64,000 nt of DNA from Bdellovibrionota bacterium (GTDB taxonomy: Bacteria > Bdellovibrionota_C > UBA2361 > SZUA-149 > CAZDWZ01), in contig JAXLVP010000002.1 of assembly GCA_046328905.1 (NCBI GenBank), forward strand, positions 197,499 to 261,498. Reading direction: 5' to 3'. The notes beneath the pieces were generated by a model, which saw only the letters and a list, made by a program, of their open reading frames with translations, ran no database searches and was not told where the DNA came from. Both the position numbers and the translations under genes were made by a program. Every line of letters starts with the position of its first letter. Position 1 is the first letter of the stretch. This document shows, piece by piece, positions 2,642 to 30,880 of this stretch.

Positions 2642-2661
2642 ATGAGCCTCGTCGCGGACCA

Positions 2662-10569: not shown

Positions 10570-10570
10570 G

Positions 10571-10604
10571 CTGCAGCGCAGCGCCGATAAGCGGCGCGCT
10601 GCAG
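10571..10604. terminator. GC-rich hairpin between convergent genes (possible bidirectional terminator)
   Basis: Perfect 9-bp stem CTGCAGCGC / GCGCTGCAG around a 16-nt loop; no U-tract on either side. Confidence 0.3.
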
Positions 10605-10609
10605 ACGTA

Positions 10610-11143
10610 CTAATGCACGCACCGGTCGTTGAACCCGGTATTCTCCTGACTGCTAGAATTCGCGAGCTCTCCGTTCGTTGCGACAGTGCAGCCTCCGTTA
10701 CCAACGAGCGGTGTCTCCATGGGGTTACCATTCGTGTGACCGTCAAAATGAGGATACGCGAAGTTGCTGCCCCACTCCCCGTCGTCTGTCATTTGAATGA
10801 GTCCTGCTCGGCTAAGCTGACACGCAATCTTAAACTCGGCTGGCTCGGGAAGCCGTTTGCCTGCTTCGGCACAACTCTGGTGACAATCTTCCCACGCTAT
10901 TCCTGCGCCTGAAAATTGGTCTTTATCCGCATAAATCCCGGTGGGACCAGCAGTTCCTTCCGATCCTATGGGAACGAAGACCTCACTTGCGCTGCGGATT
11001 TTCGCATGAGGATGAAATAAAACGTTCTTCGTCATTTCCTGATTCACGATCTCGGACCCGAGCGATTGCGCGATGGCGCTCGATGAGAACAAAACCGAAC
11101 CTGCGATGAGACATACGAGTGACGTGAGTGATTTTCTGGGCAC
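10610..11143 (-). CDS. small secreted Cys-containing protein, paralog A (possible DUF1566/Lcl-like lectin-fold domain)
   Basis: N-terminal signal peptide (LVCLIAGSVLFSSSAIAQ); W-E-D-C...KRLPEP.EF motif; clear paralog of the 30332-30880 gene; GTG start. Confidence 0.55.
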   Translation of the reverse strand: MPRKSLTSLVCLIAGSVLFSSSAIAQSLGSEIVNQEMTKNVLFHPHAKIRSASEVFVPIGSEGTAGPTGIYADKDQFSGAGIAWEDCHQSCAEAGKRLPEPAEFKIACQLSRAGLIQMTDDGEWGSNFAYPHFDGHTNGNPMETPLVGNGGCTVATNGELANSSSQENTGFNDRCVH

Positions 11144-11239
11144 CCCTCGTGTTTGCAGTGCGGTATTGACCGGGACCTCGGAACGATATCCGTCCGCCGA
11201 GCGTTAATCGAGTAGTTGAGCAAATTTTTTCTTGGATGC

Positions 11240-12487
11240 TTACTCAGGCGAATACCCAAGCCGCTCCATCAATTCTGGCGTCGCAATTGACCGTATCCGA
11301 GCCTTTTGAGATTCGCTGAAGGCGGAGCGCCACTCATCGTTCACGCCCTTGCGGAACGCATAATCGCCTGGCTTGCACTCGTATGGTTCGCCCCGAAATT
11401 CGCTCCGTGGAATTCCGTGGAAATCGACTATCGAACGAAAAAAATCTTCCGGCCGGCTTTTGAAATCTTCAAACTTGGTCCATTGGATCTCGAAGCTCCG
11501 AGACGGATCGGCTTCCGCATCCAACCATCCCTGGATCCATTCGATCTCCACACCGAGGTAGAACTCTATCGCCGCGTCGAGCTTTTCTGCCAACGTCTTC
11601 CGAAAATAGCCTTCTGGAAAATTACACTCGAGCATTGCCATCTCGTATCGCTGCATTTCTGGCGTACGTTGAGCCATCGTTCGCAACGCTTCTTCAACGT
11701 AGAGTATGGACGAATAGAACGCCTGGCGTGGATCGCGGAGGTGGACGTTCACCTTCCTTATACCGCTTAGGTTCAGGGCGAGGATGCTCCGTTTGCACGG
11801 GAACATGTGCGCGTGCAGTATTCCGCCATAGTGGAGAAAGCGTTCGAGCAGCTTCGGGATGATTGGTGCTCTATTTCCACCGTATTGGTCCGTGATCGGG
11901 TCGCGGTGGTCAAGCATACCGAGGCGCCTCGAAAGCTCGGCACAGATGAAGGTTCCGGCTGAATGCCCGATAGCTGCAAAAAGGATGGACTGATGGTTTC
12001 GGAAAGGCTCTCGTTGGGCTTCGAGGTCTAACTGTCTGATCGTATCGCGAAGAACATTGAAAACCTCCATGTTTCCGGGGTGAAATTGGAGGAGGGCGCG
12101 GAGCACCTTGACCGCATCCTCGTGCTGCTTGGACTCCACGAGCAGTCGAGCGAGCGGAAGACCATACTCTACAGCGTCCGGCCGGAAGCGCAGCGCACTC
12201 GTGTAGCTCTGGATAGCTTCTGCTCGGTACTGAAGTAGAGAGCAGAGCTCTGCATGGTGATGAAAGAAAACCGGATGCTTGTGCGGCTGAGAAATCGCCT
12301 TTCTGAGGACTTCGAGAGACTCGAGCGCCTTCCCGGAGCGAAGGAGAGCCACGCCCAACAGATCCAGAACGGACGCATTGTTCGGATCAGCGGCAAGCTC
12401 TGTCTCGAGAACCGAGCATGCCTCATCAATGCGACCCGCTTCCAGGTTCGCTAGCGCGTTCGGCGGATAATGGATCTCAGTCAGCAA
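11240..12487 (-). CDS. TPR-repeat protein with C-terminal sulfotransferase-fold domain
   Basis: N-terminal TPR-like repeats; C-terminal sulfotransferase-like motifs (LRDPRQAFYSS resembling the 3'-phosphate-binding region; FRKGVNDEWRSAFSE resembling the C-terminal RKG..GDWKN.F motif). Confidence 0.55.
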   Translation of the reverse strand: MLTEIHYPPNALANLEAGRIDEACSVLETELAADPNNASVLDLLGVALLRSGKALESLEVLRKAISQPHKHPVFFHHHAELCSLLQYRAEAIQSYTSALRFRPDAVEYGLPLARLLVESKQHEDAVKVLRALLQFHPGNMEVFNVLRDTIRQLDLEAQREPFRNHQSILFAAIGHSAGTFICAELSRRLGMLDHRDPITDQYGGNRAPIIPKLLERFLHYGGILHAHMFPCKRSILALNLSGIRKVNVHLRDPRQAFYSSILYVEEALRTMAQRTPEMQRYEMAMLECNFPEGYFRKTLAEKLDAAIEFYLGVEIEWIQGWLDAEADPSRSFEIQWTKFEDFKSRPEDFFRSIVDFHGIPRSEFRGEPYECKPGDYAFRKGVNDEWRSAFSESQKARIRSIATPELMERLGYSPE

Positions 12488-12624
12488 TTCCGTTCCCCTG
12501 TATTCGCACCTATTTTTGATGACATGTTGGTCGGCAAAGGCTCTTCGAATCGTCGATTGGCCGGTGATATTTCTTTACTGAATCCCCCAATTGATAGTAA
12601 TAATCCGACAAATCTGGAGACCTT

Positions 12625-13377
12625 ATGAAGACGGAATGGGATTACACCGACCTCGCGGACGCCTACCTCAAGCGCGCGCCCTATTCGGACCAAGCGCTCG
12701 ACGAGATGGTGCGGCTCGCAAGTTTAGATGCAGACTCTGTAATCTGCGATGTTGGAGCCGGCACCGCGCATCTCACACTGCCGATCGCGAAGCGGGGCTA
12801 TCGAGTCACTTCCGTGGAACCGAACGATGCAATGCGCGCAAACGGTATGCGTCTGACCTCCAATCTGCCCAACGTGAGCTGGATTGAGGGCACGGGCGAA
12901 GATACCAAGCAGCCCGTCTCTTCATTTGACATGGTCACTTTCGGCTCATCGTTCAACGTGACAGACCGACCGCGGGCACTCGTTGAAACTGCGCGAATTT
13001 TGAAAAACCGAGGATGGTTTGCATGCATGTGGAACCACCGCTCACTCGAAGATCCGATTCAACAAGGAATTGAATCTGTCATTCGAAAGCACATTCCGGA
13101 ATACGACTACGGTAGCCGCCGAGAGGACCAGACGGAAGTAATCAACGCCTCAGGTCTGTTTGGGAAAGTTCACAAGCTCGAAGGCCCGGTCAGCCATCGC
13201 CAATCAATTGATGATTGCGTCGAAGCTTGGCGCTCCCATGCCACTCTGCATAGGCAAGCTGGAAACAGCTTTCAAACGATCGTTGACGAGATCGAGAACT
13301 TTCTCCGAGCGAAGAACGTCGATTCAATCGACGTTCCTTACCAAACTCGAATCTGGTGTGCGCAGAAGAAGAGCTAG
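12625..13377 (+). CDS. class I SAM-dependent methyltransferase
   Basis: Motif I ICDVGAGTAHL with acidic residue at the end of beta2 (VEPND). Confidence 0.7.
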   Translation: MKTEWDYTDLADAYLKRAPYSDQALDEMVRLASLDADSVICDVGAGTAHLTLPIAKRGYRVTSVEPNDAMRANGMRLTSNLPNVSWIEGTGEDTKQPVSSFDMVTFGSSFNVTDRPRALVETARILKNRGWFACMWNHRSLEDPIQQGIESVIRKHIPEYDYGSRREDQTEVINASGLFGKVHKLEGPVSHRQSIDDCVEAWRSHATLHRQAGNSFQTIVDEIENFLRAKNVDSIDVPYQTRIWCAQKKS

Positions 13378-13378
13378 C

Positions 13379-15790
13379 TTAACTGCGCTCGGGTCCATTC
13401 GACGCGAGTACGCGAACTTTCCGATTTGCACAGTCGATCTGAAGATGACGAGCGCGAGACCACTCTGCGTAGTTCTGTTCCCCACAACCAATGACAGCCG
13501 GGATCCCAAGCTCAGCGCAGCGAATCGCCATGTGCGAGTTCACGCCTCCGTACATCGTCACAAGTGCACCGATTTTGCGAGAGAAGATCCAGTCGTGGCC
13601 CGGATCGGCGCTCCGAATGAAAACAATCTTCTGTGAAAGATCGATCTCGAATAAGTCTTCCTCGATGACGACGGTTTCGGCTATCGCACGTCGGGTGATG
13701 AAGTTCGGCTCAACCTCGCTGAGAAAAAAGTGTAGCGCGTCTGCATCGCGCTGGATCAGTTGCGGCAAACGGATTGCGCAGGCCACATCGTATCGCTGCT
13801 TATTCCGCTGGATGTCCGTCCGGAGAATCTCCGGAAGAGATTCATGGGTCAGGTTCGTATAGAGATGCCGCACTGTTTCGATATCGACGAACGCAAGGTC
13901 CTCACGAGCCATGCCGTGTTTCTCGCCGAGCTCCACCAGATACGAAAGTATCTGGCTGACATTCCGGCTAAACAAGAACTTCCCATATTCCCGTCCTTCG
14001 ACAGCTTCCCGGATGAACTGAAAAAACTCGTCGACGCTCGCGAGGAGTCCGTTTTCCTTCAGCGCGTCTGCAACACGCCCGTATTGTTCGGAAGTTAGGT
14101 GGAACTCACATTCTGCCGACTCGGTTACGCCGCACGACAGCCCTTGGAAGTATAATTCTGGAGCCTCATCGTAACGAAGCGACAGTATGTCGTACGTTCC
14201 AGGACGCAGATGACCATATCGTTGAAGGAACTCTTCCTTGCTGAGCGTTCCCACTTGCACTCGCTCCGTATCGTTCGCCAATCGCTTCGCAACCGTATTC
14301 AGCGATCCGAGAAAGCTCTGATAGTCCTCGTCGGAAAAAATTTTTAGGTCCACAAGAGATCGGAGCATCTGCACGGCGATAAAACCCGCGCGCGCGAGGC
14401 CAGCGAAAGGCAAAGTGCCGTATCGTTTTCCATCTTCGATGAGCCAATAGATTTTATCGATCGGGGACAACTCGCTCGCCACGATGCCGTCAAATCGGCT
14501 CGTCAGCTCATCGAGCTTTTTCAAATCTTCCTGATACAGACCCTTTGTTGTCGAAACCACTGTGTTTGTTAGATCCAGGAGAGCGTATTTCAGCCGGTCT
14601 AGCTCCAACTCAGTGAAGCCGTGACGCAGCAGCTTCTTGATGCGCGTGGCAAGATTCAAATCGTAGCATGAGTGGACGATTTCGAACTCTACCTTGTCAT
14701 GGTCGCTCGGGCGCTCTGTAAGCTGATCCATGTAGTAATTGACAAGCTTGTGAGCGAGCGCATTGTCGACTTTTTGCGGGACAAATGAGCTGAAGCTCGC
14801 TCGAATGTCGATATATGGAAGGCCCAAAAAATCGACCAAAAGCGGGCAACTGCGCACGTTCTTGTAGCCGTAATTGTTCCTTTGATATGCCCAGATATCG
14901 TCGGTGATAAGCTGTTGGTAGAGTGATCGCGCGAGCGCCTTCGGACGGAGGCCAATCATCTCAGCCGGATTCCAATCCGTCATGACGCTGTACATTCCGC
15001 GGTCACCGAAGAGATACGGGTGGGGCCGACTCAGCTTTTCCAGTTTTGAGCGGATGCGCACCAGATATTGAGCAAAGTCGTTTTCCGAGATTGACGAAGC
15101 TGTCGGGCGGGCGGCGATAGGCCGCACTTGAAATAAGATAAGCTCGTCAGAAGCGGTGAATGCAAACTCGATGTCGAGCCGATCGCATTCAAAAAGTGCT
15201 TCGAGCTCCTCGAGGCACCCGACAATGCGATCTAATCGCTTTTGCGGTGCCGGTTCTTTGGTTCCCCGAAACCGAATGTAAGTCTTTGTTTGATGGGTCC
15301 CTGCGGTTACGCTCGACGTTGAAGTTGTGGTGTCGTCGTAGTTGATGACATAGTACGGAGCGAGAGAATCGCCGTCTCGCGAGAATGCAACACCACTCAG
15401 GACTGCGTCGGAAAGATGCGGTTGCACAAAAAATTCGTCGGAAGATTCTTCTCGCCCGTATGATCGGATGACGCTATCAATAGCATCGACGACGGACTTT
15501 GTGTCCCCAGTAACCACGTTTCCGATCGAGCAGAACTCTCCCGCGTGAGACGCGCTCGCAGAGTCTTCAGCGGCGCAGGAGCTTCGCACAATGATCTGCG
15601 GTGAGGAAGAAAACTCGTCCTGAATAGTTCGAATGACATTCTCAGATTCCGTTCGCCACGTTTCGACTGTAAAACATCTTAGGGGAAGTACCGTCGATCG
15701 GCTCAGACGACCTTTCAATGCGAGTAACGTTTGGGCCTTCGTGCTGAAGTGGATTCGAGCCATTTTGAACCTTGCGGGTGAAACTGCCAC
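13379..15790 (-). CDS. PEP-utilising-enzyme family dikinase-like phosphotransferase (rifampin-phosphotransferase / glucan-water-dikinase-type architecture)
   Basis: N-terminal PPDK-type nucleotide-binding motif (RSSCAAEDSASASHAGEF); C-terminal swivel His domain (GGVNSHMAIRCAELGIPAVIGCG); no C-terminal TIM barrel, so not a canonical PEP synthase. Confidence 0.7.
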   Translation of the reverse strand: MAVSPARFKMARIHFSTKAQTLLALKGRLSRSTVLPLRCFTVETWRTESENVIRTIQDEFSSSPQIIVRSSCAAEDSASASHAGEFCSIGNVVTGDTKSVVDAIDSVIRSYGREESSDEFFVQPHLSDAVLSGVAFSRDGDSLAPYYVINYDDTTTSTSSVTAGTHQTKTYIRFRGTKEPAPQKRLDRIVGCLEELEALFECDRLDIEFAFTASDELILFQVRPIAARPTASSISENDFAQYLVRIRSKLEKLSRPHPYLFGDRGMYSVMTDWNPAEMIGLRPKALARSLYQQLITDDIWAYQRNNYGYKNVRSCPLLVDFLGLPYIDIRASFSSFVPQKVDNALAHKLVNYYMDQLTERPSDHDKVEFEIVHSCYDLNLATRIKKLLRHGFTELELDRLKYALLDLTNTVVSTTKGLYQEDLKKLDELTSRFDGIVASELSPIDKIYWLIEDGKRYGTLPFAGLARAGFIAVQMLRSLVDLKIFSDEDYQSFLGSLNTVAKRLANDTERVQVGTLSKEEFLQRYGHLRPGTYDILSLRYDEAPELYFQGLSCGVTESAECEFHLTSEQYGRVADALKENGLLASVDEFFQFIREAVEGREYGKFLFSRNVSQILSYLVELGEKHGMAREDLAFVDIETVRHLYTNLTHESLPEILRTDIQRNKQRYDVACAIRLPQLIQRDADALHFFLSEVEPNFITRRAIAETVVIEEDLFEIDLSQKIVFIRSADPGHDWIFSRKIGALVTMYGGVNSHMAIRCAELGIPAVIGCGEQNYAEWSRARHLQIDCANRKVRVLASNGPERS

Positions 15791-15882
15791 CAGACCTCAT
15801 AACCTCCCAATTTGATGTTTTTTCCTACTCCAAGATTCGAAAACTTGCGGGCCTTTTACCGGGCCTGTAGCTTCTAAACTGA

Positions 15883-16392
15883 ATGGACGATCAGTCGAAT
15901 AGCGCGCGAATTTTTTGGATTACTGGTTACCCCGGTGCCGGAAAAACCACACTCGCGAAAGAGGTAATGCTCGCCTTGGAGTCGCGGGGCACACCAGCGA
16001 TACTCGTCGACGGCGACGCTGTCAGGGCTATCTTCGGAAATGACTTAAGCTACGACGACGCAGGCAGAATTCAGAACGCTTGGCGCATCGCACGACTTTG
16101 CAAATTTGTCGCCGGCCAGAATATCGTGGTCGTTGCTGCTACTGTGTCTCTCTACGCGGAGGTGCGCGATTGGCTTCGCGGCGAATGTAGTGGATATCGG
16201 GAGGTCTTTGTTTCCGTAACGAAAGAAACGCTCCAGCAGAGAGACCAAAAAGGGCTCTATTCTTCCGGCGCCCCGGTTCCAGGCCTCACTCAGAGATCAG
16301 AAGAACCGCTGAATCCGCACTTGAGGATACAGAATGACGAACATCGAGAATCTTTCGCATCGCTCGCCGAGACGATTCTCGCTCTCCGGTGA
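15883..16392 (+). CDS. adenylylsulfate (APS) kinase family protein (CysC-like nucleotide 3'-kinase)
   Basis: P-loop GYPGAGKTT and LVDGDAVR motif typical of APS kinase; 169 aa. Confidence 0.75.
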   Translation: MDDQSNSARIFWITGYPGAGKTTLAKEVMLALESRGTPAILVDGDAVRAIFGNDLSYDDAGRIQNAWRIARLCKFVAGQNIVVVAATVSLYAEVRDWLRGECSGYREVFVSVTKETLQQRDQKGLYSSGAPVPGLTQRSEEPLNPHLRIQNDEHRESFASLAETILALR

Positions 16393-16399
16393 CTTGCCG

Positions 16400-17665
16400 T
16401 CAGAGTCGAGCTTGCGAGTGGTGCACGTGCTCGTCCTTCTTGGGCACTCCGATTCCCATCCCCCGCAAGATTCTTTGAATTCGCAGTGCTAAAACTTCCT
16501 GCCCTCGAGCGTTGTAGTGGTTCCAGTCGTGATAGACGGTCTCGTCGACGTCATCCAGCCACTCGCTCGCATCTTCTACATGCACCATACACCCGTCATG
16601 AAGGTCTTTTCGCAGCTCGAGGAACCGCGACCGAACCATGGCGAACCATTCTGGGACTAGCGTCGGCACAGGTGGCATGCGCGCAGCAATTTTTGCGAAG
16701 AGTGCGGACTCCTCGTCCGTTCGTTTTCGGCTACCCCACGCAAGTTGCGGCTGTAAGAGGTAGATTATCTTCGCGCCGTTGGCTCTGCTGAGCCCGATGG
16801 CACTGCGGACGTTTCGGATGTACCAGTCGACGGATTCGGGCTTGACCGACCAAGTCGAATAATCCATCTCTCCCCAAATCTTATTCGGCATCTCTACCTT
16901 CGTGGATGCCGTGTGTTGAAGTTCGTCAAAGAAAGTTTTTATTTTTGCTGCAAGCTTCGAGCTGAGGATTCTACGGCGGAGCTGATGGCTGAGCGAAGAA
17001 TAGCCCGATGCCTGAAGCACCATCTGCACAACGTCGTCCAGTGAGCGATGGGTATTTGGAATCCACCCACCCCGGAGCCCCTTATTACCCCATGTCGAGC
17101 TCAAGCAGTCATTGATTCCGTCCAGCACGACGATTACGTCGGGTTGATACCCAATCAACTCGAGCGACAAATAGCTCAGCTGTTGCCATGACATGTACGA
17201 TCCGACACCACAATTGAGCACTCTGATTTTCGGTGAGTCGGCTCGAAGGAATCTTTCTAATTGCGCGCTCAGCGTTTCAGAATTGCTGTTTACACCCATT
17301 CCCATCGCCGTAGATCCGCCCATGACGAAAACGCGTGTAAGCGACTTGTCGTCCGCATGGTAGTCGCGCGGCGTCGTGCCATTGTGAACGAAGCCATCTT
17401 GGTCGGTACCGAACCAGACGTTGTTCCATTCCCAGTGCGCGATTTCTCCCCCAGCGTAATTGCGGCCAAGTCGATGTCCGAGGCGCGGGTCCTTAATATA
17501 TCGACCAGGAACCGTTCGCCAATCGACAGTCAGTTTCCGCTCCTCTGCCATGCGCACCTGTTCTCTAGAAGAGCGGATAGATGTACTCTGCGGTTGGATC
17601 CTTCTGTTCCACCGCAGGTTGCCGAGCGAAGACGCCATAAACTGCGATGACCGGTAGCAAAACAA
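16400..17665 (-). CDS. SGNH/GDSL-family hydrolase (esterase or acyl-group-modifying enzyme); 5' end uncertain, possible frameshift
   Basis: GDS-type block VFVMGGSTAMG and C-terminal DxxH (YHDWNHY); an overlapping ORF in another frame (17565-17816) encodes a signal-anchor-like segment. Confidence 0.6.
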   Translation of the reverse strand: MFCYRSSQFMASSLGNLRWNRRIQPQSTSIRSSREQVRMAEERKLTVDWRTVPGRYIKDPRLGHRLGRNYAGGEIAHWEWNNVWFGTDQDGFVHNGTTPRDYHADDKSLTRVFVMGGSTAMGMGVNSNSETLSAQLERFLRADSPKIRVLNCGVGSYMSWQQLSYLSLELIGYQPDVIVVLDGINDCLSSTWGNKGLRGGWIPNTHRSLDDVVQMVLQASGYSSLSHQLRRRILSSKLAAKIKTFFDELQHTASTKVEMPNKIWGEMDYSTWSVKPESVDWYIRNVRSAIGLSRANGAKIIYLLQPQLAWGSRKRTDEESALFAKIAARMPPVPTLVPEWFAMVRSRFLELRKDLHDGCMVHVEDASEWLDDVDETVYHDWNHYNARGQEVLALRIQRILRGMGIGVPKKDEHVHHSQARL

Positions 17666-17941
17666 GAAACAATGGAAATGCGGCTGCTCGAGAAAGGAAA
17701 GACTTACGCTTTTGCACGATGAGAGTGTATGCGGCGCCGAGCAGGGCCGAGCAACGCGTACTCGTGCGCTGACCTGCAGGGCCTGACTTCGCGTGCGAGA
17801 TCTGTGGTTCCATCACTTACCTTCGGTTGCAATGATATGATTATGATGCAGGTTTGAAGGCTTCGGATCCCCGAAAAGATTCTCGAAATGATCAGACTCT
17901 TCAGCGAGTTACTCCCCCACGTCATGCAGCGAATGGAAACG

Positions 17942-19474
17942 TTACGCCGGAAGCAGCTCGCTATGCGCCCTCAGGAAATCTCGCGCTACGCGGCAGTTCA
18001 TCACACCAGACACTGATCGCAGGAGCGCTTCACGCCTGAAACGGGCCTGCAAGATCTCATCCCGCTCAGAATACAAGGATTTCCCATCCATCCGATCCAT
18101 CATCTCGATCGCCGCACCTTGAATTTCTTCAGGAGTATTCTCCAAGACACGCACCTTTTCCCGGGCATAGACGTGCATATTGACGCAGGAAGTGAATGGC
18201 GGTGACAGAGCTTCAGCAAAGGTTTGCAATCGACCGTCACGTTCAGAGTATTGAAGCTTCGGCAAGAAGAGATCCTCGCCGCCATACGGATAGAAGTCAG
18301 TGCCCACAATATTTGTCCAAATATTCGGTCTGCCCCAGGGCGAGGCGGCTCCGTTCGGACCCGACGCACTCGAAATAAAAAAACGACATTCGGCGGAACA
18401 ATAGATGTCGAGCCAATCCGTGGACGGTATCCGATGGGGAAGGTCGATGACAAACGGCATCGAAGGAAGCGGTGTCATATGCGGCGCTCCTATTCGTACA
18501 ACTGCTCCGCCTCTTTGGACGATCGATTCTATAGCTGGAATGTAGTTCTGAGCCGACGAGTTCATATAGGTCCAGAATGCTTCCTCCGTCGGATTTCCGG
18601 AACCGGCCAATTGCTCGCGGACATGGAGGGTAACAAACCACCGGTCTTTTGGAAGTCCGAGCGACTCGAGCAAGGCCCGACCCTGCTCCCGATGTTGTTC
18701 GTCGATCGAGAGGAGCGGGCGGCCCACCTCTCGATCCCACCGATCTTGCAGCTTCACCATCGCATGATGAAGGTGGAGCGGCTTGCCTTCTTTCACACGC
18801 AGCCAACACGAGTCGTACTCGAGATCTCGAGCGAGAGGTTGAAGCAATTGGCACAGCCCGGGATCAGTTACGACGCAGAGGTAACGCTTCCAGTACTCGA
18901 GTAGCGCCGGATTTGCTACCTTTCCGTTTGGTGCAAGAAGCACAGGCTGAAACCATTCTGGAAGCAGCCCGAGAACTTTCATTTTCAAAAAGAATTCCGG
19001 CTCGCTGACGAGATGGCCAAAATGCGTGAGCGTACCCGTGCGAGTTTGAAAAAAACGAAGTCCGCTCTTTCCAAGCGGGTGGGCGTTGATAAGGATGGCG
19101 CGTCTTTCGTGCGCTGACTCAATCCATCGATAACAGCTGTCTTGGTCCCCGGCGAAATGGTACAGAAATGCGGCGGAATAGCATGCTTCGATCGCGTCAG
19201 CAGAGATGTTGTCGGAGGCCAATTCGAGACCGTAAGCAAAATATCTTGCGACTTGGAAGAGAGCCTCGACCTGCATTTGACCCGTTGCCACGGGCATGAG
19301 CGTGCGCGCCAGCGAGACATACGCGTCCCCTAGCGCGCGACGATGGTCGTCATCCCACAGATCCTTCGGCGCGTCCTCGAGCCGGAAGATACCCTCCACG
19401 AAAGGTAGCGCCGGCGCAGTGCTCAGCGGGTCAATAGGTAGATTTTCATTCAGCGCGGCAGCAAGATTCGTCAC
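17942..19474 (-). CDS. conserved hypothetical protein, possible GT-B-fold glycosyltransferase (heptosyltransferase-like C-terminal motif)
   Basis: ISSASGPNGAASPWGRP resembles the GT9-type DSGP..H.A.A.G.P motif; start placed at GTG 19474 immediately after the upstream stop because the longer track ORF (to 19744) would overlap the upstream gene by about 270 nt. Confidence 0.4.
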   Translation of the reverse strand: MTNLAAALNENLPIDPLSTAPALPFVEGIFRLEDAPKDLWDDDHRRALGDAYVSLARTLMPVATGQMQVEALFQVARYFAYGLELASDNISADAIEACYSAAFLYHFAGDQDSCYRWIESAHERRAILINAHPLGKSGLRFFQTRTGTLTHFGHLVSEPEFFLKMKVLGLLPEWFQPVLLAPNGKVANPALLEYWKRYLCVVTDPGLCQLLQPLARDLEYDSCWLRVKEGKPLHLHHAMVKLQDRWDREVGRPLLSIDEQHREQGRALLESLGLPKDRWFVTLHVREQLAGSGNPTEEAFWTYMNSSAQNYIPAIESIVQRGGAVVRIGAPHMTPLPSMPFVIDLPHRIPSTDWLDIYCSAECRFFISSASGPNGAASPWGRPNIWTNIVGTDFYPYGGEDLFLPKLQYSERDGRLQTFAEALSPPFTSCVNMHVYAREKVRVLENTPEEIQGAAIEMMDRMDGKSLYSERDEILQARFRREALLRSVSGVMNCRVARDFLRAHSELLPA

Positions 19475-19476
19475 GT

Positions 19477-20265
19477 TCAATGTCCTTCCGTCTCGCGACC
19501 AGTCACTGTTCGAAACCGGCCGGAGGCGATATCCTGCTCGGCCCGTGCGATTCGATCGGGAGTGTCGATTCCAAGCTGATAAAATTTCGCCCCATCTACT
19601 GGAAACGCAAATATTTTTTTTGAAGAAGCGAGCACCTTCGGGAAAACATCCCGTGGAAGGTCGACGACAGGCGACCCTTCGTCCTTGGGGGAAACGAAGC
19701 TCAGTATCTCGGGAGAAAAAGCGTATACGCTTGAACTCACCCATTGCGAGACTATTTCGGAGTCAGTTTGAGGTCGTTCGACGAACCGGAGTATCTTTTT
19801 CGTCGACTCATCGAACAGAATCACTCCTGATTTTTTCAGCTGGTCGCGAGGGCGGAAGTAGCAGCACAAAGTAGCGATGCCTTCGCTCACCCTGTGCGCT
19901 TCAGCGACAGCTCGCAGATCGAAGTTCACCAGCATATCGGCGGACAACACAAAAAAAGGCTCGGAGAGAGCCATCGCCGCAGCAACCTTGCGCATCCCTC
20001 CTGCCGTACCGGTCAGCTCGTGCTCATCAACATACTCAAGCTTTAGACCAAAGCGAGATCCACCCCCAAAGTACGTTTTGATCTTCTCGGCGTGGTAGCT
20101 TACGTTCACGCCGATATGGTCGACGCCATGCGAGGCAAGAAGCTCGATACCATATTGCATCAGCGGCTTCCCGCTTATCGGAATGAGGGGCTTCGGCTGA
20201 TGATCGGTCAATGACCCCATCCGTTCACCCCGGCCGGCTGCAAGCAATATTGCTTTTCGGATCAT
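19477..20265 (-). CDS. sugar-phosphate nucleotidyltransferase (RmlA/HddC/mannose-1-P guanylyltransferase-like)
   Basis: N-terminal LLAAGRGERMGSLTDHQPKPL signature of NTP-transferase family; about 260 aa. Confidence 0.75.
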   Translation of the reverse strand: MIRKAILLAAGRGERMGSLTDHQPKPLIPISGKPLMQYGIELLASHGVDHIGVNVSYHAEKIKTYFGGGSRFGLKLEYVDEHELTGTAGGMRKVAAAMALSEPFFVLSADMLVNFDLRAVAEAHRVSEGIATLCCYFRPRDQLKKSGVILFDESTKKILRFVERPQTDSEIVSQWVSSSVYAFSPEILSFVSPKDEGSPVVDLPRDVFPKVLASSKKIFAFPVDGAKFYQLGIDTPDRIARAEQDIASGRFRTVTGRETEGH

Positions 20266-20840: not shown

Positions 20841-20846
20841 GACGAA

Positions 20847-21962: not shown

Positions 21963-21987
21963 GCCACCTCCCAAAATCCGCTGCGCG

Positions 21988-22758: not shown

Positions 22759-22760
22759 AG

Positions 22761-23903: not shown

Positions 23904-24286
23904 CGCGAAGCGGCATCGATTCTAGGGCAAACGTAATTCCATTTGCAGCACGCAGGTGTGCCGCCCTATTCGGATGTAGGAAATCAGCAGAGTGGTTCGA
24001 CAACCCATCAAGTGTCAATTCGATGACAGTACCGCAGATCGTCGATCTCAGGCTCGATCTTCTTTGAGCGAGACCGTAGGTCGTCCGTCTCGTCACACCG
24101 AGCGCGGAAATTGACCGTTGGTGTGCGGAATCGCCTCACTGGGTCGGTAATCGATCTTATCGTTCGATTCAGACGCTCCGGATACTCAACGCGAGGCCGA
24201 ACAAGCAAAGGTACGCCGAACCCAAGCCGCGCTTTCGCTCATCTTTTAAAGAGGATTAGTCCCGCAAAACTGGTGAGTTTTTTCGT
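23904..24286. promoter_or_regulatory. divergent intergenic region (putative promoters for the methyltransferase operon and the radical-SAM operon)
   Basis: 383-bp gap between divergently transcribed operons; no convincing small precursor-peptide ORF inside. Confidence 0.3.
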
Positions 24287-25450
24287 ATGGACGCAGTCGG
24301 CAACAGCAGCGTCACGCAGATGGATCAAGATATTTCCCCAGACAGACTGCGAGCGCTTCCGTCTCCACTCCCCGCGGACGGACGCGAAGCTTACACGCGT
24401 GAACGAGAGCTCGCGTTGGCGTATTCCTCGCGCCGTCGAGAGAACTACGAGCGCTATCTCGCCTCAAATCGTCGCAGCGCGACCGTCGACTACCTGCCCA
24501 TCGTGCTCGACATCGAAAACGTTTCGCGGTGCAATTTTCGCTGCATCATGTGCATCACGAACGATTTCAAGAAGGGCAAACGCGCCAGAGACATGTCCGT
24601 TGACGAGTTCAAGCGGCTGATCGACGAGCAGTATGGTTTGGTCGAAATCAAGCTGCACGGCATCGGAGAGCCGCTCTTACAAGGCGATGATTTCTTCGAA
24701 ATGGTTCGCTACGCACGTGCTCAGCATATCTGGGTGCGAACGGTAACGAATGCATCTCTTCTTCACCGCCGGGACAATTACAAAAAGCTTGTCGACAGCG
24801 ACATCAACGAGATTCAGATCTCAATCGACGGAGCGGACAAGGAAGTTTATGAGCGCATCCGCCGCCTGGCAGATTTTGAGCAGGTCACGGCCAACTGCAA
24901 ACTCATCAACCAATACAGCCGGAGCGCGGGCAAGCTTCGGACAAAGATGTGGACCGTAGTGCAGCGAGAGAACGTACACCAGCTCGAAGCTCTTGTTGAT
25001 CTCGCGCACGAGCTTGGATTCTCCAATCAAGTTTTTTCACTGCAGGTGCATGCGTGGGGATCGGAAGAGCTCGCGCAAAGGAACCACGACGCGCAGACAG
25101 ATGACATACTCAGCGAGCGTCGCTTGTTGGCCCTCGTGGATCGGGGACAGCGGCTCGGAGTCGACGTTCGATTTTGGAATATCACCAAGAAGTACAGCTC
25201 GGACGCTCCAGAGACACTTTGCCCTTGGCCCTTCGAACGCGCTTTTATCGGCTCTGATGGAAGAACAGTTCCCTGTTCGATGATTGCCAACCCGGATGTT
25301 TCAGAGATTGGTCGGGGGAAGAGCTTCCTCGAAAATTGGACCGGGGAGGAGTATCGCACGTTCCGCGAGGCTCATATCAAGGGAGATATCCCGTCCATCT
25401 GCAAAGAATGCTACCTCCACAATGAACGCACCAAGGAATCTGCGCAATGA
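24287..25450 (+). CDS. radical SAM enzyme with C-terminal SPASM-like Cys-rich domain
   Basis: CNFRCIMC (CxxxCxxC) radical-SAM cluster motif; C-terminal additional cysteines (CPWPF...GRTVPC...CKEC) consistent with auxiliary Fe-S clusters; an in-frame Met 11 codons downstream is an alternative start. Confidence 0.75.
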   Translation: MDAVGNSSVTQMDQDISPDRLRALPSPLPADGREAYTRERELALAYSSRRRENYERYLASNRRSATVDYLPIVLDIENVSRCNFRCIMCITNDFKKGKRARDMSVDEFKRLIDEQYGLVEIKLHGIGEPLLQGDDFFEMVRYARAQHIWVRTVTNASLLHRRDNYKKLVDSDINEIQISIDGADKEVYERIRRLADFEQVTANCKLINQYSRSAGKLRTKMWTVVQRENVHQLEALVDLAHELGFSNQVFSLQVHAWGSEELAQRNHDAQTDDILSERRLLALVDRGQRLGVDVRFWNITKKYSSDAPETLCPWPFERAFIGSDGRTVPCSMIANPDVSEIGRGKSFLENWTGEEYRTFREAHIKGDIPSICKECYLHNERTKESAQ

Positions 25451-26598
25451 CCCTCATCCCGATCGACGAATACAATCGCAGCGAGCAGGCCGCCCTGACG
25501 AGCGCGAGCAATCGATATCGTGAAGCTTTCGCTCCCTCTCACTTCAGCTCATTCGGATATCCGTCGCGCGTCGTAGACGAAAACGAGCTCTACAATTTTG
25601 TCGATGTAATGCAAGAGCGCCGCTTCGACTACTACTTCGATTCAGTCCTCGGTGCCCTCACGGAAGAGGAGTTTGAAAAGTACCGCTTTCTTTCCTCTGC
25701 GGTAGCCGAGCTCTGCAAGAAGCGTTTCGGGAAGCCGGGCTGCGGTAAGAGCGCCATCGCCCACAGCATCAACGTCTTACGACATATTCAGTTCGTGACG
25801 AACAATCAGTCCGCTCGCGTATTTGAGATAGGCCCCGGATGCGGATACCTCGGCGCGCTACTCACCGGCTCCAATTACCGATACATGAGCTACGATGTTA
25901 CTCAGGCATTCTATCTTTATCAGAACCGCCTGCTGTCTCATCTGTATGGTTCGCGGCTGGTCGAAGTCGCGACTGGGGGGCTTTCAGGAAAACATATTGA
26001 ACATCTCTTGAGTGGCGAGGCCGGCTTCTTACCAGCGATCCACCTTCCGTGGTGGGAGGCGATGCGCCTGCCGCAGGGCCATATTCCAACGGTGGATATC
26101 GTCACATGCAATCACGTCTTGTGCGAGATGCACTATATGAGCTTATCATTCATGGCGAAGCTCTGCCGCTTGATGCTCGAAGGGTCTTCGGGTCCTCGGC
26201 TCGTTGTCTTCGAAGGTTGGGGATGGCATGCAACGAATCGCCTCTCGACAGTAGTTGGGGAGCTTTACAGGCACGGATTCGTGCTCGCGCACCAGGACCC
26301 TCACATATCGGTTCTTGCCCTTCGCGCAGACGTAAATGCCGGGCAATTTCCGGAAGTCGGTGCCGCAGTTGATACGCACGGGATTAACTGGAGTGCCGGC
26401 AAGTGCTTCGTCGAAGAAGGCGTGAAGCCGTTTGACGGCCCCGCGATAGGTCGTAAGCTCGCCGAGTCTCGAGAGCGGCTGAGGAGTCGACAAACCGTTT
26501 CGAAAGAGATCGTCAGAAATCACCTGGTGTCGCTCGTCGGCGAAAATGGTCTCACGACCGAAGATGAGCATTTCTTAAACTTCATTGAGCACCCGTAA
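25447..26598 (+). CDS. putative SAM-dependent methyltransferase (class I-like)
   Basis: VFEIGPGCGYLG motif I, acidic post-I residue (YMSYD), DIVTCNHVL motif II; start overlaps upstream stop. Confidence 0.5.
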   Translation: MTLIPIDEYNRSEQAALTSASNRYREAFAPSHFSSFGYPSRVVDENELYNFVDVMQERRFDYYFDSVLGALTEEEFEKYRFLSSAVAELCKKRFGKPGCGKSAIAHSINVLRHIQFVTNNQSARVFEIGPGCGYLGALLTGSNYRYMSYDVTQAFYLYQNRLLSHLYGSRLVEVATGGLSGKHIEHLLSGEAGFLPAIHLPWWEAMRLPQGHIPTVDIVTCNHVLCEMHYMSLSFMAKLCRLMLEGSSGPRLVVFEGWGWHATNRLSTVVGELYRHGFVLAHQDPHISVLALRADVNAGQFPEVGAAVDTHGINWSAGKCFVEEGVKPFDGPAIGRKLAESRERLRSRQTVSKEIVRNHLVSLVGENGLTTEDEHFLNFIEHP

Positions 26599-26600
26599 GC

Positions 26601-27830
26601 ATGGCCACCGCTGCAAAGATCAAATCAGACGAGAAGCTTGCGATTCACGGCGGTACACCGGTTCGTTCGACCAAGATGCCCGCGCGCTTCGCTTTCGGGC
26701 CGGATGAAGAAGCGATGCTGATGGAATGCATCCGTTTCTATCGTGAGCGCGGCGAAGATCCCGGTTATCAATCGTTTTACGAAGATAAATACTGCGACGA
26801 GTTCGCTCGCTACCAGGGCGGCGGATATGCCGACGGCGTAAGCTGCGGCACTGCGGGTGTGTTCGTTGGGCTGAGAGCGCTCGATCTGCCACCGGGCAGC
26901 GAGGTCATCATATCTCCGGTGACCGACAGCGGTCCACTTGGCGCGATTATTCTTCAGGGATTCGTGCCAGTCGTCGCTGATGCGGCGGTGAACAGCTTCA
27001 ACATGGGCGTCGAACAGTTCCTTGCGCGAATCACTCCACGCACCTCTGCGCTCGTAGCAATTCATGCGGGAGGTGAGCCACTCGAGATCGATCGCATTGT
27101 CGAGGAAGCTCACAAACGCGGGATCAAAGTTCTCGAAGATTGCAGCCAGGCAACGGGCGGCTCTTGGAAAGGAAAGAAGGTCGGGACGTTTGGCGACATC
27201 GCGGCATTCTCGACCATGTATCGCAAGAACTTGGCCGCGGGCGGGAGCAGCGGAATTCTTTACACCACGGATCACGATCTTTACCAAAAGGCGCAGGGCC
27301 ATGCCGATCGCGGAAAGCCGGTATGGAAACGGCACGAGCTTGATCTGCGGAATCCGGGATATGCAGCATTTCCCGCTCTGAATTTCAACACGGACGAGTT
27401 CCGCTGCGCAGTCGGTCTCGCTTCGCTTCGCCGTCTCGACGAGTGCAACGAGAAACGGAAGGCGTTCCTCCGACGACTGCTTCCACGCATGAAAGAGGAA
27501 TGCAGCTCGCTCACCCCATTCAACTTCCACGAGGGCTTCTCGCCATTTTATTTCCCGATACTCGTTGACGAATCCCAACTGACCTGCACCAAGCTCGACT
27601 TTGCGAGAGCTGTGGCAGCGGAAGGGATCGGACTTGGAGACCACTACGGATGCCTGGTGAGCACCTGGCCCTGGGCGCAGGAGTATCTTTCCGACGACTT
27701 CGTCACGGTGAACGCTATCAGTGCACGCGATCGATCGTTCAATCTGTACGTGAACGAATGCTACGGCGAACAAGAGGTCGAGGATTGCATCGCCGCATTC
27801 TCGAAAGTAGAACGACATTATTCTAGGTAA
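26601..27830 (+). CDS. DegT/DnrJ/EryC1/StrS-family PLP-dependent sugar aminotransferase
   Basis: VLEDCSQATGG ... FGDIAAFSTMYRKNLAAGG block with the PLP lysine context typical of this family. Confidence 0.8.
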   Translation: MATAAKIKSDEKLAIHGGTPVRSTKMPARFAFGPDEEAMLMECIRFYRERGEDPGYQSFYEDKYCDEFARYQGGGYADGVSCGTAGVFVGLRALDLPPGSEVIISPVTDSGPLGAIILQGFVPVVADAAVNSFNMGVEQFLARITPRTSALVAIHAGGEPLEIDRIVEEAHKRGIKVLEDCSQATGGSWKGKKVGTFGDIAAFSTMYRKNLAAGGSSGILYTTDHDLYQKAQGHADRGKPVWKRHELDLRNPGYAAFPALNFNTDEFRCAVGLASLRRLDECNEKRKAFLRRLLPRMKEECSSLTPFNFHEGFSPFYFPILVDESQLTCTKLDFARAVAAEGIGLGDHYGCLVSTWPWAQEYLSDDFVTVNAISARDRSFNLYVNECYGEQEVEDCIAAFSKVERHYSR

Positions 27831-27849
27831 TTGCTGACAGGAGCGGGCT

Positions 27850-28674
27850 ATGTCGGTCTTCGAAACGTTCATTGATCCGAACGAAGAAGCGCTCGGAAAC
27901 AAATTTCTCACGCAGGGCTATCTCAATCACCCGGTAGACAATCGTTCGGCACTCGATGCGCTGCGACACGCAATTGTGGAGATTGTCGCTGAACATATCG
28001 GAGCGCCTCTTCCGAAGGACGAAGCGCATTTCTTGAACTTCGTTCATGAGCAGGTGCCGGTTGAAAAGCTGAACGATATGCGACTCAAGGTGTTCAGTAA
28101 GATGAACGCCATTCCGTGGTTCAAACCGACGTATTACGGCCTCGCCAAATCAGCGCTCGACGCCGTCGTGGGAAATGAGCTCGCGATGCAGAGCAGCGTC
28201 AACCTTTCGGTCCAATATCCGAATGACAGAAGCTCGCTCCTCAGCGTACATGCTGATACCTGGTCAGAAGAGTCTCCCTTCCAAGTCGTCGCTTGGCTCC
28301 CTCTCGTTGACGTCTACGACACCAAGGCGATGTATCTGCTCAGTCCGGAGAAGAATCGCACGGTGAACAAGCGACTTCGGGACATTTCAAAAACGGGCGG
28401 ATCGGACAAGCTCTTCGAAGCATATGAGAAGGATTTCGAATGGGTAAAGGTCCCGTACGGAAACGTGCTCGTGTTCTCACCGAACTTGCTTCACGGAAAC
28501 GTTGTGAACGTGACTCCTGAGACGCGCTGGTCGATGAACGTCCGCTTCAAAGGCCTTTTCACTCCGTACATGAGCGAAGAAAAGAAGCTGGGGGATTTCT
28601 ATCTCCCGATTACGACTAAGGTCGTCACTCGCGTCGGCATCAACTACAAAGTGCCGGAGGGATTCGATGAGTAG
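27850..28674 (+). CDS. PhyH-like Fe(II)/2-oxoglutarate-dependent oxygenase (putative)
   Basis: HxD (LSVHADTW) ... distal His (LLHGNVV) ... Arg (RWSMNVRF) arrangement compatible with the 2OG-oxygenase facial triad. Confidence 0.5.
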   Translation: MSVFETFIDPNEEALGNKFLTQGYLNHPVDNRSALDALRHAIVEIVAEHIGAPLPKDEAHFLNFVHEQVPVEKLNDMRLKVFSKMNAIPWFKPTYYGLAKSALDAVVGNELAMQSSVNLSVQYPNDRSSLLSVHADTWSEESPFQVVAWLPLVDVYDTKAMYLLSPEKNRTVNKRLRDISKTGGSDKLFEAYEKDFEWVKVPYGNVLVFSPNLLHGNVVNVTPETRWSMNVRFKGLFTPYMSEEKKLGDFYLPITTKVVTRVGINYKVPEGFDE

Positions 28675-29128
28675 TACAGCTTCAGCTCGAAACGTCCTTC
28701 AGGGCTATGTCGTGAACGTCGCGTTCGGCAATTTGCGCGTCCCGGCGCCGATGCAAAACCTCATGTTGCGTGACTACGCGGCGAAGAATAACCTGATGTT
28801 CAAGCTCTCTGTCGGCGAATACTCGTTCCCGGGGTGTTACCTCCAGCTTGAAGGGTTGTATCCCCTCCTTCGGACCATTGAAGGGATTGGGATGTGCAGC
28901 ATGTTCATGCTTCCCAAGCATGAAGAGCGACGACGTCTTGTCTACCAGAAATGTATCGAGGCTGGTGCTGCGATCCACCTACTCCTCGAGAAGGTCGTCA
29001 TCCGTGATTGGACGACCGTAGAGCGCGTCGAGGATGTGCTGCGGTTTCATCGGGCGATTGCACAGAGCCCGACGACGATTCCGACGGAGCTGTTGCCGAA
29101 ACTGCCAGTCCCTGATTGTTTCACCTGA
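28667..29128 (+). CDS. hypothetical protein (operon member, unknown function)
   Basis: 153-aa ORF whose start overlaps the upstream stop; no recognisable motif. Confidence 0.4.
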   Translation: MSSTASARNVLQGYVVNVAFGNLRVPAPMQNLMLRDYAAKNNLMFKLSVGEYSFPGCYLQLEGLYPLLRTIEGIGMCSMFMLPKHEERRRLVYQKCIEAGAAIHLLLEKVVIRDWTTVERVEDVLRFHRAIAQSPTTIPTELLPKLPVPDCFT

Positions 29129-29134
29129 GGAAGT

Positions 29135-29608
29135 ATGGTCACGGACGTTGTCACCCGCCTTGCAACCGCAGACGACCGCACCGCGTTGTGGGAATGGTAC
29201 CGCGACCCTGTTCGCTATTCTTTCTTCAAGACACAACCGGCCGTCACGAAAGATCAAAGCCGAACGTGGTTTAATCAGTTCCTAACGTCTAACCAGCGCA
29301 CTCGACTTTACGTTGTCCTTGTCGACATTATCCGCATTGGTTTTGTTCGACTGGAGCTGGTCCGTCCGGACGAATTTGAAGCAACAATCTTCATCCGCCC
29401 TCCCTATCTTGGGAAGGGTTTCGTCCCGAGAGCGTTAATCTCAGCGACATCGGAGTTAAGAAAGCATCGGCCCGGTGCACGCGTGTTTGCAAACGTTCGA
29501 CGATCGACTCCACAAGCCGAGCAGCTTTTCGCGAGCGATGAATTCTTCACTGAGCCGCACGGTGACAGCGCTTTTCGCGTAAATGTAATCCAAGGAGCCC
29601 TTCGATGA
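29135..29608 (+). CDS. GNAT-family N-acetyltransferase (putative)
   Basis: IFIRPPYLGKGFVPRAL resembles GNAT motif A (acetyl-CoA binding loop). Confidence 0.45.
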   Translation: MVTDVVTRLATADDRTALWEWYRDPVRYSFFKTQPAVTKDQSRTWFNQFLTSNQRTRLYVVLVDIIRIGFVRLELVRPDEFEATIFIRPPYLGKGFVPRALISATSELRKHRPGARVFANVRRSTPQAEQLFASDEFFTEPHGDSAFRVNVIQGALR

Positions 29609-30300
29609 AGATCCTTCTTTTGGGACCACTTTGGCGGAACGCTCCGATCCGCGACTTCTTGCAATCGAAGGGGAACGAAGTTGAGTGCACGGGCGAGCCG
29701 ATCACGCTAGACTTTGCTCAAAGCAAACACATTGAATTCATCATTAGCAGCGGTTACGGGCCGATCATTCGACCGGAAGTGGTTCACGCATTCCCGAGAA
29801 GAGTGATCAACCTGCATGCGACATATCTGCCCTACGGTAAGGGCATCGGCACTACGTTCTTTTCCGTTTTTGAAGGTACGCCGACGGGGGTGTCGATCCA
29901 CTACATCGACGAGAAGATTGATACCGGTGACGTGATTGTGCGGCGACTGGTTCCTTATTCATCTGGCGATACTCTGCGCACGTTCTACGGGAAGCTGCTT
30001 GCCGCAACTGAACAGCTCTTTCGAGACACCTGGGATCAAATTGCTGCGTCGACTAATCCGACGATTCCTCAACGGACGTTTGAGCTGTCGGTCCCCTATC
30101 GTAGCCGTGTCGACTCTGAGCGGTTCATGGACCTGCTTCCCCTTAAATGGGATACACCGCTCACAACCGTAGAGGCGATGGGGGCCGAGTTTTTCTGCTC
30201 TGAGAATTTTTGGTTGAGGTTCGAAGCGGATATTGTCCCTGCCGGAGCATCCGAAGCAACAGTATCCGCAAGCACCGACCGGCTCAAACCAGGGAGCTAA
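29605..30300 (+). CDS. formyltransferase-family protein (sugar N-formyltransferase-like)
   Basis: INLHATYLPYGKG (N-x-H ... LP) and IDTGDVI motifs match the Fmt/PurN-type formyltransferase catalytic core. Confidence 0.65.
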   Translation: MKILLLGPLWRNAPIRDFLQSKGNEVECTGEPITLDFAQSKHIEFIISSGYGPIIRPEVVHAFPRRVINLHATYLPYGKGIGTTFFSVFEGTPTGVSIHYIDEKIDTGDVIVRRLVPYSSGDTLRTFYGKLLAATEQLFRDTWDQIAASTNPTIPQRTFELSVPYRSRVDSERFMDLLPLKWDTPLTTVEAMGAEFFCSENFWLRFEADIVPAGASEATVSASTDRLKPGS

Positions 30301-30331
30301 CCCTGCCCCAACTGACGAAATCGGGGCAAGG

Positions 30332-30880
30332 TCAAACGAAAATATACTCGTGCACGCATCTGTACGCGATATTTGTGTTTTCGGCTGAGCTCGCATTGGC
30401 AAATTCACCGACACCCGCGTATAAACACGAACCGTTACCTACCACCGGCACTTGCATGTGCTGTGTGCCGGAGGCGCTGTCATATTCAAGTATTGAGAAA
30501 TTGCTAGCCCATTCAAAACCATTGGTCATATTAATGAGCCCGGTCGGAGATAGCTGACAGGCAATCTTAAATTCGACTGGCTCTGGAAGTCGCTTTCCCA
30601 GCGAAGCACAATTTTGACGGCAATCCTCCCAAGCAATACCCGATCCGGAACTTTCGTCCTTATCGATACAAAATCCCGTCGGACCACCCGTTCCTCCAGC
30701 GCCGACTGGAACAAACACTTCGGACGAAGCACAATTATTAATGTGCGGATGGAAAAGCCCGTTGTCCTTCATTTCTTGATTGATCATGTCCGAGCCAGCC
30801 GCTTGCGCCCAACTGCACGCAGGAACAACCAAACAAACCGCACCTATTAGAACTAAAGCTGCAAATGTCGTCCGTTTCAT
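30332..30880 (-). CDS. small secreted Cys-containing protein, paralog B (possible DUF1566/Lcl-like lectin-fold domain)
   Basis: Signal peptide (AALVLIGAVCLVVPACSWA), GGAGG RBS; conserved blocks shared with paralog A (GIAWEDC..C...GKRLPEP.EFKIACQLS). Confidence 0.65.
   Translation of the reverse strand: MKRTTFAALVLIGAVCLVVPACSWAQAAGSDMINQEMKDNGLFHPHINNCASSEVFVPVGAGGTGGPTGFCIDKDESSGSGIAWEDCRQNCASLGKRLPEPVEFKIACQLSPTGLINMTNGFEWASNFSILEYDSASGTQHMQVPVVGNGSCLYAGVGEFANASSAENTNIAYRCVHEYIFV

Follow-up and report, generated by a model that had tools for sequence, protein, structure and literature searches.

A 64-kb stretch from a metagenome-assembled genome (MAG) of the Bdellovibrionota (contig JAXLVP010000002.1; all 64,000 nucleotides are called the window below) holds two related genes, here termed copy A and copy B, which lie at either end of a 19-kb block inside a large sugar-nucleotide and modification locus. 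Here we report that both encode small proteins with a C-type-lectin-like fold, and that they define an unannotated family of small, presumably exported proteins of this fold, which Pfam and NCBIfam miss at threshold. In our judgment A and B are probably exported, disulfide-bonded, non-enzymatic binding heads. An earlier note on this DNA had proposed that they recognise the glycan product of the locus, or that they are remnants of a duplication that assembled the block. The pair does not mark a cassette built by duplication, and its functional link to the glycan is unproven. The find is a modest one, useful as annotation and family definition and unsurprising to the specialist rather than a new system, and the family is mostly unlinked to sugar genes in other bacteria.

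Gene Structure and Annotation of the Two Copies

Both open reading frames (ORFs) were found on one shared strand, as the earlier note had them, this being the minus strand:

10610..11143 (stop included), minus strand: copy A, 177-aa C-type-lectin-like protein, predicted to be exported; ORF and translation with a GTG start
30332..30880, minus strand: copy B, 182-aa C-type-lectin-like protein, predicted to be exported; ATG start with GGAGG upstream

The signal peptides claimed for both proteins are visible by eye as n-, h- and c-regions of Sec type in the N-termini of A and B (MPRKSLTSLVCLIAGSVLFSSSAIA and MKRTTFAALVLIGAVCLVVPACSWA, each followed by Q), with a K/R n-region, a hydrophobic core and an A-x-A-type site (AIA before Q and SWA before Q). 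Relatives in the family likewise have hydrophobic N-termini, and Sec export of both copies seems likely from these features. The mature parts would comprise about 151 aa in copy A (pI 4.85) and about 156 aa in copy B (pI 4.58). They hold five to seven cysteines, an odd number in each. Six cysteines are conserved family-wide and may form disulfide bonds.

The NCBI record for copy B is a “hypothetical protein” (U0136_15180) from a Bdellovibrionota MAG, and the record for copy A (U0136_15080, MFN8391610.1) is a 60-aa fragment only, corresponding to residues 118-177. The 177-aa protein scores 161.6 bits against the hidden Markov model (HMM) of the family, aligns over its full length with copy B and the relatives, and keeps almost all invariant and near-invariant family residues, the exceptions being D31 (E in copy A) and a lost C50/C71 pair. 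Because of this full-length alignment and the retained residues, we regard the public annotation of copy A as truncated; the GTG-initiated ORF with its signal peptide and whole family domain is likely the true gene, and the annotation is corrected here from 60 to 177 aa.

A C-Type-Lectin-Like Fold

Structure prediction was decisive for assigning the lectin-like fold. An AlphaFold2 model built on 33 sequences reached a pLDDT of 82.2 and a pTM of 0.74 (a poor model from 7 sequences, with a pLDDT of 57.7, was discarded), and structure comparison recognised in it the two-helix, two-sheet fold of the C-type-lectin-like domain (CTLD, or CLec). The top-ranked Foldseek match was 8oks (E 1.5e-4), the best structural matches were non-enzymatic adhesin heads, and similarity to Lcl-CTD was found as well. 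The idea of a DUF1566/Lcl-like lectin fold, raised in the earlier note, thus stands at the level of the predicted fold and fails at the level of the family: PF07603 (DUF1566) failed to match A or B even with the cut-off set at E<=10, nor did any of 63 relatives match it at E<=0.1, and membership was rejected on this ground. Canonical Ca2+/carbohydrate motifs (EPN or QPD, plus WND) occur in neither copy nor in the family consensus, and the “EP” of LPEPxE belongs to a helix-2 motif in common with FGE. A and B are members of the CTLD fold and not classical Ca-dependent lectins.

The structure 8oks is that of the Bd2740 tip, a C-type-lectin variant that does not depend on Ca and caps a prey-recognition fibre (PMC10769870). 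Bd2740, a MAT fibre protein of Bdellovibrio bacteriovorus, has 627 aa and forms a trimeric fibre that bears the domain at its C-terminal tip, whereas A and B are stand-alone mature proteins of about 150 aa, signal peptide plus domain only, without stalk or anchor. They also differ in their conserved cysteines and in an N-terminal helix/hairpin extension peculiar to the family, and have no detectable sequence-family relation to Bd2740. The C-terminal domain of Legionella pneumophila Lcl (PDB 8q4e) is a C-type-lectin-like DUF1566 domain that forms a trimeric head on a collagen-like stalk; it is devoid of disulfides and has a basic surface that binds sulfated glycosaminoglycans (PMC11162425). In contrast, A and B are acidic (pI 4.6-4.9), have 5-7 mature cysteines and lack any PF07603 match. 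The CLec fold is also shared with Mtd and TvpA, proteins of diversity-generating retroelements (DGRs), but A and B are much smaller and the window holds no template repeat. We would place the family in the bacterial CLec branch alongside FGE, DUF1566/Lcl, the Bd2740 tip and Mtd, as a compact, disulfide-bonded, stand-alone “head” related to Bdellovibrio prey-recognition fibre tips and to Legionella Lcl.

Definition of the Family

An exhaustive search of 1.84 billion cluster representatives retrieved 180 relatives at E<=1e-3, of which 71 also pass E<=1e-10; most of the relatives are stand-alone proteins of 165-190 aa. A collection of 5.8 billion proteins returned 32 relatives, most of which are nameless, the sole name from any source being “hypothetical protein”. 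The taxonomy is patchy and covers MAGs of Alphaproteobacteria, Planctomycetota, Bacteroidota, Oligoflexia/Bdellovibrionota and Acidobacteriota. Viral collections gave no relatives by sequence and, by fold, only weak matches to herpesvirus C-type lectins. The consensus reads G-x-D-M-W-T..M...G-L-F-x-P-H..x-C...T-E-x-F-V......G-F-C-I-E-K-x-E-R-x-A..W-E-x-A-R in its N-terminal part and ..C...G-K-R-L-P-E-P-x-E-x-K-x-A-C.....G-L-x-N-M-T...E-W-A-S-N-F......G-x-G-x-C......F-R-C-V-R in its C-terminal part.

Neither PHROGs nor NCBIfam matched A or B (in NCBIfam, nothing meaningful). In Pfam they touch FGE-sulfatase alone (PF03781, a domain of about 255 positions), over profile positions 95-132 and at 19.0 and 17.7 bits, below the gathering cut-off of 23.3 bits. 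Of 63 family members, 37 touch the same Pfam family at E<=0.1, the best of them at E 4e-6. A 63-member profile matches human FGE/SUMF1 at E 4e-7 over the helix motif W-x-x-A-x-x-C...G-K-R-L-P...E, and more weakly over G-L-x-N-M...E-W and R-C. The N-M-T stretch of the consensus was considered as an N-glycosylation sequon, a reading that we rejected because the stretch aligns with the FGE structural motif G-L-x-(N/D)-M-x-G-N-x-W-E-W.

Binding Head or Enzyme?

In longer homologues the domain lies at the C-terminus, with the G-x-D-M motif as its exact starting point. In P0105 (353 aa) it follows about 100 residues made of collagen G-P-P repeats, in P0018, P0022 and P0066 it follows short stalks with a T-K-x-Y-V-D motif, and the stalk of P0022 (219 aa) matches a PHROG tail-fibre family. 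Collectins, Lcl and fibre tips are built in this way, which speaks for a ligand-binding head. From this architecture we infer a binding function for A and B. The mature protein would be little more than the bare head, with the family-specific N-terminal helix and beta-hairpin (G-x-D-M-W...L-F-x-P-H...C...E-x-F-V...G-F-C) packed on the CTLD core. Such a head most likely binds an extracytoplasmic ligand, glycan or protein, independently of Ca and without catalysis, through its variable C-terminal loops, with A and B probably differing in specificity.

Several points weigh against this proposal. The N-terminal extension holds the near-invariant polar residues D31, H46 and E54, conserved to a degree seen more often at a fixed functional site than in an adhesin that diversifies. 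With the EPN/QPD and WND motifs absent, the sequence gives no ground for inferring sugar binding. In addition, the signal peptides of both copies were judged by eye only.

The conserved residues bear on an alternative in which A and B are not binders but small enzymes of the FGE-like superfamily, for instance periplasmic oxidative or thiol-dependent modifiers. H46, E54, E100, E103, E123 and N127 are invariant or nearly so, the A/B clade has an extra Cys87 one helical turn from the invariant Cys91, and FGE-sulfatase is the sole Pfam similarity. Compared with FGE and pFGE, however, A and B have about half the length, and the similarity stays below cut-off and confined to the short profile segment given above. 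The catalytic cysteines of human FGE, C336 and C341, are spaced by five residues and lie shortly before the R-C motif; the alignment of the family with FGE shows no counterpart for them, and the only conserved cysteines in the C-terminal 40 residues of the family are C152 and C175, 23 apart. The adhesin heads among the top structural matches, and the position of the domain on collagen-like or fibre-like stalks, also speak against catalysis. The small size, the partial coverage and the lack of the catalytic cysteines led us to reject an FGE enzyme, and we consider any enzymatic role unlikely.

Origin of the Pair

A and B align gaplessly from end to end in BLASTP with 95 of 177 residues identical (54%, E 1e-59), which bears out their paralogy, and the blocks FHPH, SEVFVP.G and GIAWEDC..C...GKRLPEP.EFKIACQLS occur in both copies just as first described. 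The nucleotide-level similarity is real, but it is limited to one 199-nt stretch of 71% identity, the only one detectable by blastn; overall the two genes share 56% of their nucleotides, and 34% at third codon positions. The two halves of this stretch are:

10788..10984, minus strand: conserved core of copy A, codons ~54-119 (blastn)
30525..30721, minus strand: conserved core of copy B, counterpart of 10788-10984 (blastn)

This core is the only repeat inside the window at E<=1e-4, and a scan of every frame of the window with the family HMM brought up neither a third copy nor a remnant.

In a neighbor-joining tree of 43 family members, all 100 bootstraps united A, B, P0002 and P0003 in one clade, and 89 of the 100 grouped B with P0002 and P0003. 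Copy B is nearer to its orthologues from other organisms (73-76% identity, in other samples) than to copy A. The tree thus indicates that the A/B duplication is lineage-specific, yet older than the split of B from these orthologues, and the two copies may best be described as anciently diverged, lineage-specific paralogues. Synonymous sites are saturated both between A and B and between B and P0003, so that dN/dS could not be computed. The nonsynonymous divergence (dN) between A and B is 0.41 overall, 0.25 over residues 40-127 and 0.60 over residues 128-177, the loop-rich C-terminal part. Both copies are intact, constrained and under purifying selection. In copy A, C50 is replaced by R and C71 by Y, and this correlated loss suggests that the two cysteines pair.

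One explanation offered for the pair was that A and B are boundary remnants of a duplication or a mobile-element event that built or delivered the 19-kb block. They do have the same orientation at either block edge, and each is convergent with an operon end and adjoins a gene for a protein with an N-terminal TPR region (11240-12487 on the minus strand and 31018-32982 on the plus strand). However, the two TPR proteins show no relationship outside the TPR region, the flanks of A and B are dissimilar, and no repeat other than the 199-nt core exists in 64 kb. The GC content is flat at 0.52-0.56 over the block and the remaining sugar locus (0.55-0.585 beyond about 34 kb), and no integrase or transposase family was matched among about 50 ORFs scanned between 79 and 45974. 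Given also the saturated dS, the low third-position identity and the closeness of B to the orthologues of other organisms, a duplication scar or mobile cassette was rejected, and the assembly of the block by duplication is very improbable.

Another explanation would make A and B the variable proteins of a DGR, like Mtd or TvpA with the same fold. The window contains no template-repeat copy of either 3′ region, the A/B core being its sole repeat, and the divergence affects every codon position, with no restriction to adenines. Pfam matched no reverse-transcriptase family in the same set of about 50 window ORFs, nor is one present in the called-gene tables of homologue loci, and among the loci with such tables mobile or defence genes lie near two only (L035 with an integrase and AbiE, L020 with a large helicase). 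The missing template repeat led us to reject a DGR target, which is effectively refuted for the window and hardly conceivable as the origin of the pair.

Is the Family Tied to Glycan Loci?

Thirty-six related loci were fetched, some of which are redundant (e.g., L004 = L012, L015 = L018, L013 = L031, L011 = L020 and L005 = L023); a metagenome scan gave no close orthologous loci with long context. When 32 proteins of the window locus were compared with all 36 by BLASTP, matches occurred in three only. L034 is collinear with the window, with SpoChoClust_1 (66% identity), a GNAT gene and then a convergent B orthologue. L001 holds DegT, epimerase, CTP_transf_3 and methyltransferase genes, and L035 has a TylF methyltransferase adjoining an integrase and an AbiE pair. 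In L035 (225-5334) the family member P0160 sits at the edge of a mobile/defence patch (phage integrase, AbiEi/AbiEii), directly after the TylF-type methyltransferase.

Elsewhere, family members were found between nuo and rimP-nusA-infB, between parC and recO-era-rnc-lepB as tandem arrays, among large unknown proteins or small unknown genes, or next to a large helicase. When 100 neighbour proteins from 12 further loci were pooled and scanned with Pfam, housekeeping families came top (the commonest being parC, lepB, recO, rnc and era), and no glycan-biosynthesis family was within the 25 most frequent. Adjacent methyltransferases recur in L001, L011/L020 and L035, but they are mutually non-orthologous, and thus there is no conserved gene pair. 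The earlier note had named two findings that would count against its view, the lack of a lectin-like fold and a scatter of paralogues irrespective of glycan loci; the fold is present, and the scatter is largely what we see.

These results weigh on a further possibility, that A and B are dedicated lectins of the locus, exported to the periplasm or surface, which bind its heptose/amino-sugar glycan and so anchor, organise or sense it, each paralogue reading a differently modified form. Both genes lie inside the sugar locus, the lectin-like fold is established, and the 73%-identical orthologue P0003 has the same neighbours (SpoChoClust_1, GNAT and a convergent lectin-fold gene). P0005 (49% identity) lies among DegT, CTP_transf_3, epimerase and methyltransferase genes, and P0160 adjoins its sugar methyltransferase. 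On the other side, the remaining fetched loci have no homologue of any of the 32 proteins, the neighbours are mostly the housekeeping or unknown genes listed above, the adjacent methyltransferases share no orthology, the carbohydrate-binding motif is absent, and the collinearity of L034 may equally reflect plain shared ancestry of close relatives. We take locus lectins to be rather unlikely. Family linkage to glycan loci mostly failed to appear, and a link between the A/B clade and the sporadic carbohydrate cluster, restricted to this lineage, is possible, L034 being the one locus from which it is drawn. Quite doubtful is the more specific version in which the clade is a glycan-locus-dedicated, soluble periplasmic or surface lectin pair, each member reading another modification state of a heptose/amino-sugar polymer. 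If true, a dedicated lectin pair would be a built-in recognition or quality-control module of a bacterial glycan pathway, and could serve the discrimination of self from prey surface in Bdellovibrionota.

Returning to the binding heads that we favor, independent paralogue expansions are common in the family. An Oligoflexia MAG has a pair 3 kb apart, and tandem triplets occur in several Rhodospirillaceae MAGs and genomes of that type (L021 6662-8555, L022 4405-6320, L024 9884-11735, L004 6108-7966 and L009 9857-11719), those of L021 and L022 sitting between parC and recO-era-rnc-lepB. Middle copies of the triplets make up a tight, short-branched clade in the tree, and the flanking copies are much more divergent. 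The family could serve as a tractable model of the way in which paralogue arrays let the bacterial CLec scaffold diversify its ligand specificity.

The Sugar Locus Around the Pair

The region from about 79 to 36526 of the window is one large sugar-nucleotide/modification locus of about 36 kb. It encodes a split transketolase, UDP-glucose dehydrogenase, epimerases, an HldE-like protein, GmhB and GmhA-like SIS proteins, a sugar-1-phosphate nucleotidyltransferase, UDP-galactopyranose mutase and several methyltransferases including a TylF type. Also present are a PRK05849 PEP-utiliser-like protein with a PRK05541 APS-kinase-like partner, a TIGR04372 and a GT4 glycosyltransferase, a radical-SAM/SPASM protein, a DegT aminotransferase, the TIGR04324/TIGR04323 “sporadic carbohydrate cluster” pair, a GNAT protein, a formyltransferase and UDP-GlcNAc 2-epimerase. 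Within it, A and B each end a transcription unit that is convergent with the end of a plus-strand operon. A 40-nt spacer separates copy A from a convergent SIS-transaldolase gene and a 31-nt spacer separates copy B from a convergent formyltransferase gene, each holding a strong GC-rich hairpin:

10566..10614, minus strand: GC-rich hairpin, probably a bidirectional terminator (folding -24.6 kcal/mol, z -2.98)
30296..30336, minus strand: GC-rich hairpin, probably a bidirectional terminator (folding -25.8 kcal/mol, z -6.0)

The placing of A and B at the ends of the 19-kb block probably reflects where transcription units stop rather than a duplication that built the block.

The C-terminal domains (250-400 aa) of the two neighbouring TPR proteins matched nothing in Pfam, NCBIfam or PDB. 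In the one encoded at 11240-12487, an R-D-P-R-x-x-F-Y-S stretch presumably recalls the 3′-PB motifs of sulfotransferases, a putative likeness only. The genes at 13379-15790 (minus strand) and 15883-16392 (plus strand) form a divergent pair, an 803-aa PEP-utiliser/PPDK-like protein (970 bits against NCBIfam PRK05849, with no solved-structure match) and an APS-kinase-like protein of the PRK05541 subfamily. We take this pair to resemble the O-methyl-phosphoramidate genes Cj1418/Cj1415 of Campylobacter jejuni, which would mean a phosphoramidate and not a sulfate module.

Several other genes of the locus have unusual structures. The HldE-like bifunctional heptose enzyme (6391-7977, minus strand) carries its nucleotidyltransferase at residues 32-162 and its PfkB kinase at 195-508, the reverse of the domain order in the HldE model NF008454. 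At 9193-10569 (plus strand) a GmhA-like SIS domain is fused to a transaldolase (TIGR02134, 351 bits), and at 909-2680 (minus strand) the N and C halves of the transketolase are separate genes; together they suggest that the locus has its own supply of a precursor, a 7-carbon or other ketose phosphate. The 600-aa ORF at 17942-19744 (minus strand), whose C-terminal domain is a TIGR04372 glycosyltransferase, shares 268 nt as called with the nucleotidyltransferase gene upstream of it (19477-20265, minus strand), and its real start is probably further downstream. Finally, the operon at 24287-29128 (plus strand) encodes the radical-SAM/SPASM protein, a family-less 383-aa protein, the DegT aminotransferase, TIGR04324, which is the 2OG-Fe(II) oxygenase of the poorly characterised sporadic carbohydrate cluster, and TIGR04323, of the LIC12192 family.

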